In this document: in pieces, positions 3,881-56,604 of the stretch | How the letters are laid out: each line of letters begins with the position of its first letter | Numbering within the stretch: the first letter of the stretch is position 1 | NCBI GenBank assembly: GCA_965223325.1 | Contig: CBDCWI010000002.1 | Span: 2,624,001 to 2,688,000, forward strand | Length of the DNA: 64,000 nucleotides | Origin: Candidatus Multivoradales bacterium | GTDB taxonomy: Bacteria > Acidobacteriota > Thermoanaerobaculia > Multivoradales > Multivoraceae | Reading direction: 5' to 3' | The notes under the pieces: generated by a model | Database searches by the model: none | What the model saw: only the letters and a program-made list of their open reading frames with translations | Told to the model about the DNA's origin: nothing | Made by a program: the position numbers and the translations under genes

Positions 3881-8164
<4,284 letters not shown>

Positions 8165-8179
8165 TAGGTTGAGCGAATC

Positions 8180-9757
8180 ATGCTCCCACAAGGGCTCCAG
8201 GGCCTCTGGCCTAGGCCTTTTCGGTATTGGGTCATCACCGTCGTCAGCCTGCTCGGCTGCTTGTACGGCTCGCTCGTTTCTCCGGTTGGCGCTCAAAGCG
8301 CCACCGACGACGCAGCTCGCTTCGAGGTCGAGGAGTTCGCCATTGTCGACTGCCTCCTGCCGGGGCGGACCACCCGCATCGGCAAGTCGAGAGTCAAAGG
8401 GCCGCGCCGCGCCACGAAGACGAGTGCCCGCGATTGCAACATCCGCGGAGGCGAGCATGTCGCGTACGACCGCGCCGACTGCCGAACGTCGCTTAAGTTC
8501 TGGCAGGACCGCGCCGAAACCGGCGACTCGGAGGCCGCCTTCTATGTCGGCCAGCTGCTCGAGCGAGGGTGTGAAGGGCTGGCGCCTGATCCGAGCAAAG
8601 CTGTCAGCTGGTATGAACGCGCCCTCGAGCACGGTTCTCGGCCCGCGCGACTAGCGCTCGCCGGGCTCTACGATCGCGGCCACGGCGTAGAGAAGGATCC
8701 AGGAAAAGCCATGGCACTTCTCCGCCAAGACCTGCCTGACGAGGTCACCTTGATCGACACGCAAGAGTTCGCTGAACTCGAAAGCGCAGCTCGAAGAGCC
8801 GACGACAGGGCGGATGATCTCGAGCAGCAGCTGCTTAAAGCAGAGCAGCAGCTCGAGGCCAGTGACACCAACCGCGAGACTCTCAGTCGCTCGGTCACCA
8901 GACTGGAGGCGGAGCTCGGCGAGGCGCGCGATCGCCAGGCCAGCACCCAACAGCTGGTCGAGCAACTCGAGAGGCAGTTGCTGGCGCCACCCCCCGAAAA
9001 AGCGCCAAGGCCGACCTCGCTTGACTTCGGCACGTACCACGCCCTGGTCATCGGCAATTCCGACTACCAACATCTCGACCCGATTCCGCAAGCCGCCAGC
9101 TACGCCCAGTCGGTCGCCTCCCTGCTCGAAAGGCGTTACGACTTCCGCGTCCAGCGGCTGATGAACGCCACCTACGAAGCGCTCTACCGCAAGCTCGAAA
9201 CTCTCAGAGGCGAGCTAACAGAAGACGACAACCTGCTGATCTACTACGTTGGAAGCAGCTTTCGCGAATCGGGCCGCAGCTATTGGCATCCGGTCGATGC
9301 CGAAGACGAGGCCAGCCGCTTCAACTGGCTCGAGGTTGAGCGACACTTGTCGAGCGTTATCGACGTCATTCCCGCGCGGCAGCTGCTGGTTGTCGCAGAC
9401 GCTGCGTTCGAGGGCGTGCGGGTGCGCTCGGCGGTGCCACAACTGCCGGTCGGCATGAGCGCGCGCCAGAGGAAGAAGCACATGGAGGACATGTTGAAGC
9501 GCCGCAGCCGTATGGTCATGGCGTCCGGAAAAGGGCCTTCTCCGTTCTCTCCCGCTCTCGTCGGATGTCTCGAAGAGAATCGAGCGATTGCCGGGGCATC
9601 CCGCATCTACGGTTGCGTTCTGGCCAGGATGCGGCAGAACACAAGCTCCGCCAGCTCGGACACCTCGCGCTACGCGCCGATTCGCTGGGGACAGAGTGAC
9701 GCCAACAGCGACTTCTTCTTCGTCCCCACGAAGCCCAGCCGCGCCGGAGCCCACTGA
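8180..9757 (+). CDS. Secreted Sel1-repeat / coiled-coil / catalytically degenerate caspase-like protein
   Basis: Signal peptide; Cys-rich N-terminus; Sel1 repeats (AAFYVGQLLERG, LALAGLYDRGHGVEKD); C14-like domain with YYVGSS and VADAA in place of the HG and DSC motifs. Confidence 0.85.
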   Translation: MLPQGLQGLWPRPFRYWVITVVSLLGCLYGSLVSPVGAQSATDDAARFEVEEFAIVDCLLPGRTTRIGKSRVKGPRRATKTSARDCNIRGGEHVAYDRADCRTSLKFWQDRAETGDSEAAFYVGQLLERGCEGLAPDPSKAVSWYERALEHGSRPARLALAGLYDRGHGVEKDPGKAMALLRQDLPDEVTLIDTQEFAELESAARRADDRADDLEQQLLKAEQQLEASDTNRETLSRSVTRLEAELGEARDRQASTQQLVEQLERQLLAPPPEKAPRPTSLDFGTYHALVIGNSDYQHLDPIPQAASYAQSVASLLERRYDFRVQRLMNATYEALYRKLETLRGELTEDDNLLIYYVGSSFRESGRSYWHPVDAEDEASRFNWLEVERHLSSVIDVIPARQLLVVADAAFEGVRVRSAVPQLPVGMSARQRKKHMEDMLKRRSRMVMASGKGPSPFSPALVGCLEENRAIAGASRIYGCVLARMRQNTSSASSDTSRYAPIRWGQSDANSDFFFVPTKPSRAGAH

Positions 9758-10283: not shown

Positions 10284-12203
10284 ATGAACCGAGTCATTGT
10301 TGGCACCGCAGGCCACATCGATCACGGCAAAACGACGCTCGTCAAAGCGCTGACGGGAGTCGACTGTGACCGTTGGCAGGAAGAGAAAGAGCGTGGCATC
10401 ACGATCGATCTCGGCTTTGCACACCTGACGGCAGACGGTCCTGGTGGTGAACCACTGCAGATTGGTTTTGTGGATGTTCCCGGGCATGAGCGCTTCGTAC
10501 ACAACGCTCTCGCGGGCCTTGGAGGCATTCGTTTGATGATGCTGGTAGTGGCGGCTGACGAAGGAGTGAAGCCGCAGACCCAAGAGCATCTAGCGATTTG
10601 CTCATTGCTCGACATTCCGGCCGGCCTGGTGGCGCTCTCCAAGAGCGATCTGGTCGACGGAGAGTTGCTCGAGCTGGCGCAGCTGGAACTCGAAGAGGCG
10701 CTCGTCGGAACGCCTTTCGAAAAGGCACCAATCGTTCCGGTCTCGGCAACAACGGGGGCAGGTGTGCCCGAGCTGCGCGAGCAGTTGGTGGCTCTGGCGG
10801 CCGCTGCCCCGGCCATCACGCCACTCGAGCAGCTACCCGCGCGCCTGCCGATCGATCGCAGTTTCGTTCTGCAGGGTCTCGGCACGATCGTGACGGGGAC
10901 TCTCATGACTGGGCGAATCAGCGCCGGCGACCAGCTCGACGCCCTTCCAGGTGACCTATCGGTGCGCGTGCGCAGCGTGCAGGTGCACGGCGAAGAGCGT
11001 GAGCATGCGGTTGCTGGCGAGCGCACTTCGCTTCAGATCACCGGCGCCTCGAGCGCGGAACTGTCGCGCGGCCTCCACCTCGTCGAACCCGGGCGATTCA
11101 GGAGCTCGCACAGTTTGCTGGTGCGCCTTGACCTGCTTCCCAACGCGCCAAAGTCGATCCGGGGCTTTGCGCCGGTGCGCTTTCATCTGACCTCGAGCGA
11201 AAGAGTTGGCAAGATGCGACCGCTCGGAGTCGACAAACTCAACCCGGGCGAGCAGGCGGTGGTGGAAATCCGTCTCGATCGGCGCGTACCGGCGGTGCGC
11301 GGCGATCGGTTCATCGTGCGGAGGCCATCGCCGCAAACCACGCTCGGCGGCGGTGTGGTGCTCGACCCTCTCTGGCTGAGGAGACGGGGAGCCTCACTCG
11401 AAACGGCTCTGGCAGGCCTTGGAGGACCCGACGCCGAAGCTCTCTCGACCTGGGTTCGACTCGCCGGTGCGGCGGGCATGGAGCCCGCCGAGCTGGCGCG
11501 GCGGATCGGTAACCAGGAAAGCGTGGTGACGACGCTTCTCGAGCCGGCCATCGAAATCGGAAACGTGTTTCTCGTGCCGGCCGGCGCCGGGCATGGAGCA
11601 CGGTACGTACACAGCGAGTCCTGGCAGACCATCGAGGTGCGCGCCCCGCAGGTGCTCAAGGACTACTTCAAGCGCGAACCGCTGACCCATGGCATGCCGA
11701 AGGCCGAAGCCAAGAAACGCCTGGCCCCTGGCCGCGCCGCGCTCCTGGCCGACGCCTGGCTCGAGCGCCTGGCGGCGGCGAAACGCATCGTGATCCGCGG
11801 CGACCTGGTCGACCTGCCGGGACGCGCAAACCCGATCGCCGGTTCCGATGCCAAGCTCTCGGCGTCGATTCTCCAGGCTTTCGAGCAGGCCGGCCTCGCT
11901 CCCCCGTCGCCGAACGACGTTTGCCACCAGCTCAACGCCAAAAAGCAGATCTTCGACGGGGTTCTCAAGTACCTCATCCGCGACGGACGACTGGTACGCC
12001 TGCCCGGGGACCTTCTCATCGCCGCCGCTGCAGTCGAGACGCTGGTCGCCGACGTGCGAGGAGCGAGCTGGCAAGGGTTCTCGGTGCCAGAGTTCAAGGA
12101 CCGCTTCGGTTTGACCCGCAAATGGGCAATACCGCTGCTCGAGCATCTCGACAAACTCCGGGTCACGCGGCGCCAGGGCGATCGCCGACAGGTGCTGCGC
12201 TAG
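10284..12203 (+). CDS. selB: Selenocysteine-specific translation elongation factor SelB
   Basis: [33 protein letters not shown]-terminal winged helix [20 protein letters not shown]. Confidence 0.97.
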
Positions 12204-52092: not shown

Positions 52093-54372
52093 CTAGGGGT
52101 TACTACGACTCCAGGCGGTGGTGCCTTGGCTCTCGAAATCGTCTCCGAAGAGGGACTTCCAGGTACGTAAGAGCGTCGCCAAGGCCGCCGGGCTCGACGT
52201 GGCCGCGGTGTTACCTTCCTGGTTCTCGCGATTCACACCGTGGCAGCCGTCACAGGCTCGAATCTCGCCCGGCTGAGCGGTGATCCAGAAACGTTCTCGC
52301 ACCACCGGCGTACCGGCGCTATCGGTGCTCTGCCAGGCGAGCGCCCGCTGCGCAGGCACGAATGCAGCCACCGACCCATCGGGATGAATCTCGACGCTCG
52401 CCGGTGGCGCGTCGTTCGCCAGGGGTGTCAGAGCGAGCGCTTGTTCGTCGTGCAGGTACTGCGCAAGGACGCGACGGCCGGGCCGCGGGTCGTCGGTACC
52501 GCCATAGCCGCGCAGCAGATCGCCCTGGAAGAACTGGAAGTACTCGAGGTCGTAGAGCTTGCCGTCGGGCGTTCCACGGGTCGTCTTACCGCCCGGCACG
52601 CGCAGGTTGTAGGGCTGCTGAAGGTCGGCGTCGTCGCGTGAGGTCACGTCGCGCACCACCAACAAGGCCAACTGCCGATCTCGCATCCAGGATTGCAGCT
52701 CGTCGGGTGCTATGCCCTCGGCATCGAAGACCGCCTGCTCGGGGCCAGCCAGGGCTTCGCTCGGCGCGGGCGGCACGGGGCGCGCGCGAACTTCGACGGG
52801 CTCGAGCTCCCACAGCGGTCCGGAGTAGGTCACCCGGACATCGGGATCCCACCAGCTGACGGTTTCAGAGATGCCCGAGGTGAGCTCGACACCCGGGGCC
52901 ATCGAGCCGGTGCTCCCGGTCACGGTGCGCAATCTGAAGTCGTAGCGAGGGTCAGGCGCAGCGCGCGTTCCCTCATTCTCGGCATAGCGCTTCTCATGGG
53001 TGTGCGCGGCAATCAGCGTGCCGTCTGAAAGCGGCAGGGGGTCACGAAAGAAGCCCCGGTGACCGGCCGGCGGCGTAGCGCCGTCGGCGATCGGAACACG
53101 ACCCACCCGGTCGGTCAGGTAGCTGACGGTCACGTCGTCGGGATTCCGCTCAGGCGGCGCGTCGAGGGCTACAAGTTGGCCAGCGGCGTGGGTCCCGAAC
53201 TCTGGTGCATCGGTACCAACGTAGCGACCCAGATCTGTAGGGTCTTCGCGCATCTGCAAGATGTTCTCGAGCTCGTTCGGGTTCACACGGCCAGTGACCT
53301 CGGCGATGAACTCGACCAGGTTCGGGTCATCGTTGAATGCCCGATCGAAGTAGCTCGCCAGCTCATGACGTCCGACGTGATTGAGCATCTCCTCGCTGGT
53401 GCCGTCCTGGTTGATCTGCCACGGCAGGAACTGGTTCAGCGTATGGCCGGCCAGGTTGGTCCCCGCGAGCAGGTCGGTACGCTCGCTGCGCGGCTCGGGG
53501 AAGATCTCATCTTGTCGTGGCAGGCGCTCGGCCCGGGCCGACTCACTGGCGTAGTTGAAACTCCCGTGATCGCGGTGGCCGAGGGCGTCGGCATCGGCCT
53601 GTTGGTCTTGCTGTAGGTGGTCCCAACGCGTGAAGATCACGCGCCCGAACGAATCGACGATGGGCGTGAACGAACCCGAGGGCGCGTGGTTCAGCATCAC
53701 CAGCTCGCCGCTCTCGGGGTCGAGGCTCCAGAGACCGGTCGGCGTCGGAGTGGACTCGTACTCGTCGAGCTGCGGATAGTGATGCGCTGTTCCACCGCGC
53801 GGCCGGTCGGAAACGAAAACGATGCGACCGTCGCTCAAGTACGCGGGGCTCACGTTGTTGTAGCTGCTGGGTTGGCGCGGCACTCTCCCAATCGACACGG
53901 AGTCTCCTTCGCCGAGGCCGGTGACCTCATAGAGCTGCCAGAAGGTCTGCTCTTGGACGTACTGCTGGGACGGCGCACCGCGCAGCATGCTGAAGACCGC
54001 CTTCTCGCCGTTCCAGTGCACCGACGGTCCGCGCACCGCGATCGCATGGCTCGCCTGCCCGCCGGCCTGGCCGAAGCCGGCTTCTTCGGTGAGATTTCGC
54101 AACGTCCCGTTGGGATACAAGATCCAGAGATCGCCGCCCCGTGCGACCGCCATCATGTGCGTCCTGTGGTTCGCAAACACCGAGCCAATGGTCGCGAAGT
54201 CTGCAGGCACCGGAACCTGGGTGACGAACAGAACCGGATTGGGAACCACGCCCGCGGTGCCACGCACCGGGGAGCCAGCCGGGACCGAGCGCTCCTGGGC
54301 TTCGAGGCTGGGCGTGGACGAGGCAACTAGTCCGAACAACAGAACCGCGGCGACGCGGTCGCGGATAGGCAT
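52093..54372 (-). CDS. Secreted HzsA (hydrazine synthase alpha)-related protein with heme motif and FxDxFE tail
   Basis: P.YLSDGRIVFVSDR, GRVIFTRWDHL, DGSVAAFVPA, PGEIRACDGCHG; ends LFGDDFESQGTTAWS. Confidence 0.75.
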   Translation of the reverse strand: MPIRDRVAAVLLFGLVASSTPSLEAQERSVPAGSPVRGTAGVVPNPVLFVTQVPVPADFATIGSVFANHRTHMMAVARGGDLWILYPNGTLRNLTEEAGFGQAGGQASHAIAVRGPSVHWNGEKAVFSMLRGAPSQQYVQEQTFWQLYEVTGLGEGDSVSIGRVPRQPSSYNNVSPAYLSDGRIVFVSDRPRGGTAHHYPQLDEYESTPTPTGLWSLDPESGELVMLNHAPSGSFTPIVDSFGRVIFTRWDHLQQDQQADADALGHRDHGSFNYASESARAERLPRQDEIFPEPRSERTDLLAGTNLAGHTLNQFLPWQINQDGTSEEMLNHVGRHELASYFDRAFNDDPNLVEFIAEVTGRVNPNELENILQMREDPTDLGRYVGTDAPEFGTHAAGQLVALDAPPERNPDDVTVSYLTDRVGRVPIADGATPPAGHRGFFRDPLPLSDGTLIAAHTHEKRYAENEGTRAAPDPRYDFRLRTVTGSTGSMAPGVELTSGISETVSWWDPDVRVTYSGPLWELEPVEVRARPVPPAPSEALAGPEQAVFDAEGIAPDELQSWMRDRQLALLVVRDVTSRDDADLQQPYNLRVPGGKTTRGTPDGKLYDLEYFQFFQGDLLRGYGGTDDPRPGRRVLAQYLHDEQALALTPLANDAPPASVEIHPDGSVAAFVPAQRALAWQSTDSAGTPVVRERFWITAQPGEIRACDGCHGVNRENQEGNTAATSSPAALATLLRTWKSLFGDDFESQGTTAWSRSNP

Positions 54373-54563
54373 AGCAGGGCTCCCTGGTTTCGAAAACAAG
54401 GAAAGGGAATCGGGATAGGAGCGCCTGCGCCGTGCCGTGGTTTGAAGGCGAGCGGACCGGACCGACCGGCGCAGGCTAATATCCCTTAGTGCGCACTATT
54501 CTATATTGGGTCCGCACAGCGCCGGGTGATAGCTTGATGAGCCTCCAAGTCCTCATTCGAGCC

Positions 54564-55802
54564 ATGTCAACGAGTCGACGATCCATGCACCATTCCTTGC
54601 TTGCCCCGCGCCTGCTCGTGCTCCTCGGTTTGAGCCTCGTTCTCGCCCCTCAAGCCCCGGCCCAGGAGAGCGAGGGCGCCTCCAGTCAGGGCCGGGTCGA
54701 GGGTGCGCACGAGAAACTCCCGCCCGGCTCGTTCGAGGACGACCTCGGGATCACGATTCCCATACCGGCCAGCCACTCCGGGCGGCGCTATCCAGCCACC
54801 GGCGACTTCCCTACCGGTCCCGCAATCGGCCAGCGGCTGCCCGAGTTCGAGCTGCCCAACCAGAGTGGCGAGGTCATTGACTTTCATGCCGACCGCGGCG
54901 ACTCGAAGGCGATCGTCGTCTTCTTTCGCTCGGCGGTGTGGTGACCGTACTGCCGTACGCAGCTGGTCGAGCTGCAAGAAAACCTCGAGTTTCTCAACGC
55001 CCAGGGCATCAAGCTCTACGGCGTCAGCTATGACGCCCAGGGCCACCTCAGAACGTTCGCCGATGGGCACGGAATCACCTACGACCTGCTGTCGGACTAC
55101 GACTCGGAAGTCATCAAGCGCTTCGGGATTCTAAACACCACCATTGAACCCGACGCGCCGGAAATCCATCGCGGAACCGAACGCGGGTTCTACGGTATTC
55201 CCTTTCCTGGCGTCTACGTGGTTGGCAACGATGGCCGGGTCACCGAAAAGTTCTTTCACCGCCACTACGCCACGCGCACTTCGGCAGGCACGATTCGAGA
55301 CAGCGTGATCGGTCGAATTGTTTCCCAACACGAAGTCCCGGCCACCGACCTGGGTGACGACCACGTCGAGGTCTCCCTCTTCCTCGCCGACCCGTCGCTC
55401 CGATTCGAGTACGCGAGCACGCTCTACGTCCGCTTCGAAGTCGCCGATGGGTTCCACATCTATGCCAACCCCCTGCCAGAGGGTTTTATCGCATCGACGG
55501 CAGAGATCGTCCCGACCGAAGGGGTGCGCGCTGGAACTGCAACCTATCCTCCGACTCGCATCCGGGAATTTCCCAAGCTCGGCGTGACACTCAACGTCTA
55601 CGAAGGCACCACCGACGTTGCGATCCCGATCACCCTCAATTCCGAGATCCTCAACTGGCCCATCCAGGACAAGCCAAGCGAGATCAAGATTCCGGTCGAG
55701 GTGGTCTATCAGGTGTGCAGCGAAACGGTTTGCTACGTGCCAATGGAGAAAACCGTCGAGCTCGAGGTCCCGATCGAGCCGCTGGTGATGCCCGGCCAGT
55801 GA
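54564..55802 (+). CDS. Probable selenoprotein: secreted AhpC/TSA-redoxin (UxxC) fused to a DsbD N-terminal domain
   Basis: The frame stays open across TGA 54942-54944: FFRSAVW-U-PYCRTQLVELQ...GVSYD...DLLSD; joins ORF-track entries 54489 and 55218; C-terminal GFHIYANP and YQVCSETVCY. Confidence 0.88.
54959..54975 (+). promoter_or_regulatory. SECIS-like hairpin
   Basis: GCAGCT-GGTCG-AGCTGC; the G-initiated loop begins 20 nt after the UGA. Confidence 0.7.
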
Positions 55803-55851: not shown

Positions 55852-55907
55852 GTTGATGCGTTGATGCGTTGATGGCATCGTCAGATGATGCTATGATGCC
55901 TGGATGC
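55852..55907. promoter_or_regulatory. Probable TA autoregulatory operator
   Basis: Repeated (T)GATGC units and the palindrome gcatc-N7-gatgc immediately upstream of the antitoxin start. Confidence 0.6.
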
Positions 55908-56173
55908 GAACGACGGTCACTCTCGATGCCGACGTCGAGGAACTGCTGCGCGAAGCAATGCGGCGAAACCGCAAGAGCTTCAAACAGACCCTCAACGACG
56001 CTCTCCGCAGCGGCCTCGGCGCCGGGCGACCAAGCGACGAGCCCGAGTTCGTCATCAACGCACGACCCCTCGGTCTGCGCTCAGGAATCGACCCGGCGGC
56101 GGTTCGCGACCTGGATGACGAGATCGAAGTCGACGAATTCCTGCGCAAGACCCAAGAGCTCGAAGGCCGGTAG
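55904..56173 (+). CDS. vapB: VapB-like antitoxin (RHH)
   Basis: MRTTVTLDADV...SFKQTLNDALRSGL; overlaps the toxin start. Confidence 0.85.
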   Translation: MRTTVTLDADVEELLREAMRRNRKSFKQTLNDALRSGLGAGRPSDEPEFVINARPLGLRSGIDPAAVRDLDDEIEVDEFLRKTQELEGR

Positions 56174-56604
56174 TGATCGTGCCCGACGCCAATCTGCTGC
56201 TCTATGCCTACGACACGTCGAGCCCCTTTCATGAACGTGCCGCAAGGTGGTGGGAAGGAGCGCTGAACAGCGGTGAGAGCGTCGGTTTGTGCTCCGTTGT
56301 GCTGTTTGCCTTTGTGCGAGTCGGGACGAATCGGCGAGCCTTCGAGAACCCGATGACAATTGGCGAAGCATCGGGCCACGTTCGCAGCTGGCTGGCGCGC
56401 TCGGTGACCGAACTCCTCATCACACAAGAGGCCGACGTCACGAAAGCCCTGCAGTGGCTCGAAGCCCTGGGCTCAGGCAGTACCCTGACCACCGATGCCC
56501 AGATCGGAGCCATCGCCAGTCGCTACCGAGCGACAGTGCACACCGCCGACACCGACTTCGCCCGATTCCCCGGGGTCAGATTCAAGAACCCGCTACTCGA
56601 CTGA
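56173..56604 (+). CDS. vapC: VapC PIN-domain toxin
   Basis: IVPDANLLLYA, DAQIGAIA, TADTDFARFPG..NPL. Confidence 0.92.
   Translation: MIVPDANLLLYAYDTSSPFHERAARWWEGALNSGESVGLCSVVLFAFVRVGTNRRAFENPMTIGEASGHVRSWLARSVTELLITQEADVTKALQWLEALGSGSTLTTDAQIGAIASRYRATVHTADTDFARFPGVRFKNPLLD

Follow-up and report, generated by a model that had tools for sequence, protein, structure and literature searches.

In the window, i.e., the whole stretch of 64,000 nucleotides analyzed here (contig CBDCWI010000002.1, positions 2,624,001 to 2,688,000, of Candidatus Multivoradales bacterium, Acidobacteriota, assembly GCA_965223325.1), a gene was recognized at positions 54564..55802 of the forward (+) strand. It is one real gene, and its internal TGA almost certainly encodes selenocysteine (Sec, U). 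Translation with TGA read as U gave 412 residues and a stop codon. The gene is a single unit with Sec-type recoding signals, two identifiable domains, one Sec and three Cys residues that are invariant, and export signals at its N-terminus. It is very probably a real Sec gene with the architecture of an exported UxxC redoxin fused to a domain like the alpha domain of DsbD (DsbD-alpha).

Recoded TGA and Cys forms

A sequence-only reading of the window had proposed an in-frame TGA at the first Cys position of a W-C-P-Y-C-type motif. The TGA was located at 54942..54944 (+), i.e., the first position of U-P-Y-C (54942-54953) in W-U-P-Y-C. It is codon 127 (U127) counted from ATG 54564, its context is F-F-R-S-A-V-W-U-P-Y-C-R, and no other in-frame interruption was found between this ATG and the stop TGA 55800-55802. 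The frame had been said to continue for about 285 codons, and exactly 285 open codons were counted downstream of the TGA. The start codon is ambiguous: ATG 54564, 54585, and 54537 each yield a leader.

Homologous loci were collected by a scan with one genome per species, in which 197 relatives were found and the best 80 loci were examined. They come from metagenome-assembled genomes labelled with Acidobacteriota classes or orders, except for one short contig labelled Hydrogenedentota. TGA was kept at the aligned site in all 78 loci that reach it. The other two do not cover the site, i.e., L065, whose contig begins just after it, and L071, which is truncated at the 5' end. In L071 (positions 2380-2520, Bryobacterales), the homology begins inside the hairpin described below and the DNA upstream is unrelated; the locus is either a remnant truncated at the 5' end or the result of a break in the assembly.

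Over its full length, the product of 54564..55802 is homologous to the 78 loci and to two Cys forms, P0026 and P0120. Such Cys-containing homologs at the UGA position had been named as the check to be made, and they were found: the motif is W-C-S-Y-C in P0026 and W-C-P-I-C in P0120. The protein is conserved on both sides of the TGA in a single frame, in alignment A3 as well as in the homologous loci. An in-frame UGA at a conserved position, with Cys in homologs, is the pattern by which selenoproteins are recognized, and it is the pattern seen here. Among the findings that, in the sequence-only reading, would speak against it were homologs with neither Cys nor Sec at this position, and TGC or TGT in the reads; neither was encountered in the loci and run contigs compared. 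TGA 54942-54944 is identical in contigs from three sequencing runs of one study, which is possibly the source of the assembly, and it is no local sequencing error. Several short metagenome contigs with 1-8 differences stack on window positions 54909-54978 only, and the UGA-hairpin segment is apparently common to other genes or organisms in metagenome samples.

The TGA could be taken as a true stop, in which case the locus would hold two genes or a pseudogene, or contain a sequencing error. The plain list of open reading frames (ORFs) breaks the gene into 54489..54944 and 55218..55802, the split that had been foreseen for standard gene callers, and most database entries correspond to the downstream piece. 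However, the TGA is present in every locus covering it and the protein continues in one frame on either side, full-length Cys homologs exist, the triplet is the same in the three runs, and the genome has a complete Sec machinery. A downstream fragment would also be without a leader and without half of its fold. A true stop is therefore extremely improbable.

SECIS-type hairpin

A bacterial Sec insertion sequence (SECIS) element is a stem-loop that follows the UGA at a short distance and carries G/U in its apical loop. The stem-loop with a GGUCG loop that had been pointed out after the TGA was recovered at 54959..54975 (+), and it has this form. It comprises 17 bases, i.e., GCAGCU (54959-54964), the loop GGUCG (54965-54969), and AGCUGC (54970-54975), with a 6-bp stem that starts 14 nt after the UGA. 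The hairpin itself was predicted in single-sequence folding.

In 79 sequences (57 distinct), standard pairs were found in 100% of the cells across the six stem pairs. Compensatory double changes were seen in two stem pairs, one each (L063 and L072), together with one G-U pair (L030). Only 2 of 500 shuffles matched the pairing and covariation values of the hairpin, and none of the slid controls did. The loop variants were GGUCG, AGUUG, and CGUUG, every one of which includes G-U. Normalized synonymous-codon entropy was 0.26 in codons 128-138 versus 0.57 elsewhere, computed on 76 distinct genes after L064 and L075, which are shortened or frame-shifted, had been dropped. Among 219 eleven-codon windows, the eight with the lowest entropy all begin at codons 126-133. 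Judged from these alignments, conservation of the hairpin exceeds what the protein requires.

Selenocysteine machinery and other selenoproteins

The selB gene, which encodes the Sec-specific elongation factor and had been reported to lie in the window, was confirmed at 10284..12203 (+), 42 kb upstream of the fusion gene. Its product matched the Pfam domains GTP_EFTU, Beta-barrel_SelB, SelB-wing_2, and SelB-wing_3. Elsewhere in the genome, selA (369 bits), selD (222.8 bits, over the cut-off), and a tRNA-SeC with anticodon tca were found. The Sec machinery, i.e., selA, selB, selD, and tRNA-Sec, is complete in this genome.

The genome contains one copy of the fusion and, outside the window, four single-domain AhpC/TSA-like frames (L083-L086) with an in-frame TGA at the active site. 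One of them is exported, has W-U-P-F-C, and carries the hairpin GCAGCUG-GGU-CAGCUGC. Two have W-U-P-Y-C, one without a leader and one with N-terminal membrane helices. The last, L086, has F-T-G-G-U-T and is an exported peroxiredoxin (Prx) of the T-x-x-U type. The genome seems to be rich in selenoproteins of the Prx superfamily.

Export signals and N-terminal extension

The signal peptide proposed in the sequence-only reading was borne out by inspection. A Sec-type signal peptide was predicted by eye at residues 1-33 (54564..54662, +), with cleavage after A-P-A. The leader consists of a basic n-region, then LLVLLGLSLVLA, and then A-P-A|Q-E. Equivalent hydrophobic leaders with A-x-A-type end sites were found in the homologs, e.g., ...LAVPAFA|QD, with the exception of L076-L081. 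The leaders of these six loci have a lipobox-like ...A-A-G-C (...AAAGC) in place of the A-x-A site, and they are probably lipoprotein forms, judging from this motif. The L076-L081 subgroup shows approximately 52-55% identity, has Q instead of R after UxxC, and has a shorter C-terminus. Export of the fusion protein is strongly supported by these leaders. Tat export was considered as the general route, as the window leader has S-R-R, and was rejected because the homolog leaders, compared by eye, have no shared twin-arginine motif.

Between the leader and the first domain, a conserved N-terminal extension, V-x-G-A-H-E ... D-D-L-G-I-T ... P-G-R-R-Y-P, was found at 54693..54824 (+). Its columns are near-invariant in A3, and it was modelled with a predicted local distance difference test (pLDDT) score of 85-91.

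UxxC domain

The AhpC/TSA domain (Prx-like, thioredoxin-fold) was assigned to residues 88-228 (54825..55247, +) by Pfam PF00578, with E = 1.6e-26 and 93.1 bits against a cut-off of 26. The mature protein was modelled by AlphaFold2 with the 31-row alignment A3 (mean pLDDT 81.4, predicted template modelling score 0.66). The linker between the two domains, residues 245-264 (55296..55355, +; residues 212-231 of the mature model), is disordered, with pLDDT <50. The only Cys and Sec positions are U127, C130, C385, and C390, all of them invariant in A3.

The best structure and sequence matches of this domain were BCP/PrxQ proteins. In Foldseek, 3hjp was the top match of the mature model, with a template modelling (TM) score of 0.88 on the target, and ResA ranked lower. 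In phmmer, BCP 2cx3 was matched with E = 1.3e-12; the Ser of its S-P-V-C aligns with U127 and its peroxidatic Cys with C130. The Ser/Thr position of the Prx motif S/T-x-x-C is thus Sec in the window protein, whereas the signature Pro is not kept, so the canonical signature P-x-x-x-T/S-x-x-C is absent. Because of this alignment and the loss of Pro, the active site is read as a CxxC type, as in TlpA/ResA, on a Prx-like scaffold. In NCBIfam, no model exceeded its cut-off; SelL_rel_redox (NF040769) reached 33.3 bits versus 120, and WAxxUGC_long (NF041054) 19.4 versus 300.

The same matches allow another function. The N-terminal domain may be a selenium peroxidase, in which U127 would form a selenenic acid, C130 would resolve it, and the alpha-like domain would recycle the pair, so that the protein would scavenge peroxide in the periplasm. 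The nearest folds are those of BCP/PrxQ, C130 occupies the position of the peroxidatic Cys, and an exported T-x-x-U peroxiredoxin-type ORF (L086) is present in the same genome. In Caulobacter, a periplasmic peroxiredoxin pathway fed by a DsbD-family protein has been described (PMC3322552). However, the Prx signature is lost, with Thr/Ser replaced by Sec and Pro not conserved. The Caulobacter PrxL, described in the same report as lacking the conserved Prx residues, had no peroxidase activity. ResA is also among the fold and sequence matches, and TlpA/ResA reductases characteristically have a W-C-x-x-C-type motif. A peroxidase is on the whole an unlikely alternative, and a TlpA/ResA-type reductase is preferred for this domain.

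DsbD-alpha-like domain

The C-terminal Ig-like domain with a C-x4-C pair, which had been seen in the unaided translation, is a DsbD_N domain. It was assigned to residues 283-400 (55410..55763, +) by Pfam PF11412, with E = 1.3e-14 and 54.6 bits against a cut-off of 25. The pair C385-S-E-T-V-C390 (55716..55733, +) lies within this match and is invariant in A3 and in A4, an alignment of 48 C-terminal domains.

When the C-terminal domain alone was searched by phmmer against the PDB, no match was found at E up to 1, and a profile was required. The best matches of the A4 profile in the PDB were all DsbD alpha domains, with weak similarity (E about 0.01). C385 and C390 align with both Cys of ...YQGC....FCYPP in 3pfu, 5nhi, and 1jpe, i.e., the redox pair of DsbD alpha, and the spacing of C385 and C390 is shorter by one residue. 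The model of the domain has a pLDDT of 87.9. Among its top Foldseek matches listed (ranks 1-19), solely DsbD/ScsB N-terminal domains were found, and the matches listed had E values of 8e-6 to 1e-3 and TM scores of 0.44-0.58.

The domain therefore has the Pfam assignment, the Ig-like fold, and the aligned Cys pair of DsbD alpha. It shares with the alpha domains of Escherichia coli (1l6p, 1jpe, 3pfu) and Neisseria meningitidis (6dps, 6dnv) the aligned Cys pair followed by C-Y/F-x-P, and the strand motif D-G-x-H/Y-x-Y. Unlike them, it is placed at the C-terminus and has no attached membrane domain, and its Cys spacing is one residue shorter, which is also the case in the DsbD of this genome. The fusion protein is not a full DsbD, as it has no DsbD_TM (PF02683) match. 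After the domain, a conserved C-terminal tail, P-L-V-M-P-G in the window protein, was found at 55782..55799 (+) from the A4 consensus.

Predicted packing of the two domains

Docking was done on the two domains of the natural Cys homolog P0026, which is 47% identical to the window protein, with alignment A5. The interface score ipSAE was 0.73, and the best of three controls gave 0.00. This mark of 0.73 was attained by 116 of 157 solved complexes and by 2 of 215 mismatched pairs. Contact agreement between the docking runs was at least 83%, and partner pLDDT was at least 82. On the side of the N-terminal domain, the contacts comprise the surroundings of the CxxC with its helix (106-117) and the segment H-Y-A-T-R-x-S-A (208-223). 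On the alpha side, residues 333-337 take part together with the first strands (251-264) and with the conserved tail at the C-terminus (388-392), which contacts residues 109-116. The model supports a packed two-domain body, in which the C-terminal tail would lie on the active-site helix.

From these contacts, the DsbD_N-like domain might be regarded as a structural or packing module. It would hold a structural disulfide, its tail would shield the Sec, and no electrons would be carried. The confident contacts are made by the strands, residues 333-337, and the tail, with the cysteines excluded, and the tail is conserved as P-L-x-x-P-G. On the other hand, both Cys and the surrounding YQxC....C(Y/F)xP are kept exactly as in the redox-active DsbD alpha. 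A structural disulfide would be conserved too, so the Cys conservation is not decisive. A purely structural role is considered improbable, and a redox role is preferred for the alpha-like domain.

Proposed mechanism

SelB with Sec-tRNA(Sec) would decode UGA 54942-54944 as Sec, with the hairpin that begins 14 nt further on as its guide. The product would leave the cytoplasm via the Sec pathway, and the leader would be cleaved. In the periplasm, the AhpC/TSA-fold domain may act as a TlpA/ResA-type reductase, not as a classical peroxiredoxin. U127, placed at the attacking N-terminal Cys position of the CxxC, would attack the substrate, and C130 would resolve the adduct, giving a selenenylsulfide. 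The DsbD-alpha-like domain with C385/C390 would serve as an adaptor that returns electrons to the U-C pair. Its electrons would most likely come from the thioredoxin-like gamma domain of the single full-length DsbD of the genome.

That DsbD was found at C2:2937193-2939133 (L091/L094) and is the sole DsbD_TM (PF02683) match of the genome. The protein has all three domains, alpha, beta, and gamma, with C-D-D-R-V-C in the alpha domain, i.e., the C-x4-C spacing of the fusion, and W-C-A-T-C in the gamma domain. The mechanism as written, with its substrate, direction of electron flow, and DsbD link, is plausible, at slightly short of an even chance. Taken as a blend of the gene reading and this mechanism, the whole explanation is moderately probable. 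The sequence-only reading had proposed a Sec-dependent thiol-disulfide relay that carries its own shuttle domain. The exported UxxC/DsbD-alpha selenoprotein stood, whereas the relay is only plausible, with no conserved partner gene and with the alpha Cys outside the modelled contacts of P0026.

The flow of electrons might also run in reverse. The UxxC domain would then be gamma-like and charged from the membrane, and it would reduce its own alpha-like domain, which would pass electrons to other thioredoxin-fold proteins of the periplasm. Electrons in DsbD pass from gamma to alpha, and the domain order of the fusion, i.e., a thioredoxin fold and then alpha, mirrors this step. The alpha cysteines are unburied in the modelled P0026 interface and could face outside partners. 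The amino-terminal domain of DsbD is reported to contact substrates (PMC3322552). However, the single DsbD_TM protein of the genome already has its own alpha and gamma domains. The PF02683 search of the genome found no CcdA-like stand-alone membrane partner, and no conserved neighbor was found among the flanks of the 79 loci. This reversal is quite doubtful, and the flow from DsbD through the alpha-like domain to the U-C pair is kept as the preferred one.

Several results weigh against the preferred account. In the hairpin, four of the six stem pairs are invariant, and the covariation comes from one sequence for each of the other two (L063 and L072). The 101-nt region as a whole has an ordinary folding energy (z = -0.50), which was equalled by 62 of 200 shuffles. 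No Rfam SECIS family was found in positions 54800-55150 at E up to 10; the sole hit was RF01111, which is unrelated and at chance level (E = 5.7). The alpha cysteines (367 and 372 in P0026) and the cap-loop region are absent from the confident contacts, and for this reason an exchange between Cys and Sec within the chain is unsupported by the model. Such an exchange may depend on the flexible linker, on dimerization, or on a partner outside the chain. The docking was made on P0026, not on the window protein, and its pass may stem from likeness to solved complexes of the N-terminal domain of DsbD with thioredoxin-fold proteins (1vrs, 1z5y, 1jzd). A Sec at the position of U127 could fit GPx-like peroxide reduction equally. 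When the flanking ORFs of the 79 loci were clustered, no conserved redox neighbor was found; the top family, present in 30 of 79, is unrelated.

A second protein with a DsbD_N domain was found at C1:208513-211230 (L093). It is a frame of 905 residues whose N-terminal part is thioredoxin-like, with C-H-W-C, and whose C-terminal DsbD_N carries C-N-E-T-I-C. With this protein beside the fusion, DsbD_N recurs as an add-on to thioredoxin-fold proteins in the genome. It can be speculated that the DsbD-alpha-like module is, in Acidobacteriota, a portable socket that wires varied thioredoxin-fold effectors to DsbD, with the tail as a lid of the selenol; this wider idea is itself rather unlikely. Examples of it may be the Sec redoxin in several paralogous lineages and the C-H-W-C protein of 905 residues. 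If it were true, the Sec fusion would define an almost Sec-obligate branch of periplasmic reduction or peroxide scavenging that annotation has missed.

Relation to known selenoproteins and DsbD-linked systems

The selenoprotein had been called hidden. This holds for gene callers but not for the literature, as both the UxxC family and the fusion are already in print (PMC2398784, PMC9402790). Single-domain Prx-like 1 proteins (pfam00578, UxxC) entered the catalogues with the ocean selenoproteome studies (PMC2398784), and a 2026 review names the group Prx-like thiol:disulfide oxidoreductase (PMC13188914). The window protein has the features of this group, i.e., the PF00578 fold with Sec first in UxxC, and in both cases the redox function is only predicted. 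The classical members are single-domain proteins, whereas the window protein adds a leader, the N-terminal extension, and the C-terminal DsbD_N.

A Prx-like U/CxxC protein fused to Pfam11412, then named DsbC, was predicted in 2021 from Global Ocean Sampling (GOS) marine metagenomes (PMC9402790). As in the window protein, where both domains are present and C385 and C390 are invariant, it has the two Pfam domains in one chain, a U/CxxC, and extra conserved Cys in the fused domain. The part of that paper dealing with the fusion consists of one sentence and a figure, and it names no taxon, no SECIS, no export signal, no contact between the domains, and no source of electrons. The window protein is a well-supported new member of this published fusion type. 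In full texts that link selenoprotein with pfam11412, only PMC9402790 was found. Among titles and abstracts on acidobacterial selenoproteins or SECIS, none dealt with the fusion.

Exported Prx and Prx-like proteins of Caulobacter (PprX and PrxL) are reported to be kept reduced by the DsbD-family protein ScsB (PMC3322552), which is a precedent for the recharging proposed here. Like the window protein, these and TlpA/ResA/CcmG are exported thioredoxin- or Prx-like proteins, and, as far as these sources go, they are reduced by DsbD-family proteins. Unlike it, they are Cys-based and are polypeptides separate from the reducing alpha domain, and some are membrane-anchored.

The finding confirms known biology and overturns nothing. 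What is added here is the placement of the fusion in Acidobacteriota, where Sec is nearly universal in it. Further additions are the conservation of the hairpin, the signals for export, a prediction of how the domains pack, and an estimate of how widely the gene is mis-annotated.

Distribution and mis-annotation

In the database, 265 homologs were found at E <=1e-3, and the best 120 were analyzed. Of these, 118 are downstream fragments of 230-296 residues that cover at most 68% of the query and start at a Met after the TGA. Only P0026 and P0120 are full-length. Named entries are labelled peroxiredoxin, redoxin domain-containing protein, or hypothetical protein. Because the homologs are stored as fragments and no NCBIfam model rescues them, exported selenoproteins are undercounted in redox inventories of Acidobacteriota, and the public sets hold mostly headless fragments.

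In an even sample of the phylum, comprising 401 genomes and searched with a match threshold of E <=1e-30, the family was matched in 45 genomes (64 match rows), among them all 10 that belong to the same taxonomic family as the window. Leaving out genome G024, which gives one row, reduces this to 44 of 400 genomes with 63 rows. The genomes often have 2-4 copies, with a maximum of four, and lower-identity paralogs (28-40%) are included. One TGA was found in 61 of the 64 rows, counted per row and not site-aligned. Among rows spanning both domains, 59 of 61 have one TGA, and the other two have none and are of the Cys type. The family lends itself to asking why Cys gives way to Sec in an oxidizing compartment, and how a DsbD-alpha module works apart from its membrane partner.

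Neighboring genes and other observations

A scan for promoters and terminators gave nothing usable for the 54564..55802 gene. Representatives of the frequent neighbors in the homologous loci were a metallo-beta-lactamase-fold protein, GST, homogentisate dioxygenase, PD40, PQQ dehydrogenase, and TraB. Many of the clustered flanking ORFs are probably spurious ones in GC-rich DNA.

The divergent upstream gene at 52093-54399 (-) encodes an exported protein of 768 aa. Its only Pfam match is the middle domain of hydrazine synthase alpha, near the C-terminus (E = 7e-11). Directly downstream of the fusion gene, at window positions 55904-56604 (+), an ORF of 89 aa with no Pfam match overlaps a PIN-domain ORF of 143 aa by one base. 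This pair looks like a toxin-antitoxin system of the VapBC type.

Two caspase-domain (Peptidase_C14) proteins were found at 3881-9757 (+), just upstream of selB. A Ser/Thr kinase domain stands at the N-terminus of one, a protein of 1427 aa, and Sel1 repeats occur in the other. Elsewhere in the genome, at C2:3648974-3649340 (-), ARAGORN predicted a second tmRNA-like gene with a long and odd tag peptide, beside the normal tmRNA of the genome with the tag ANDNLALAA.

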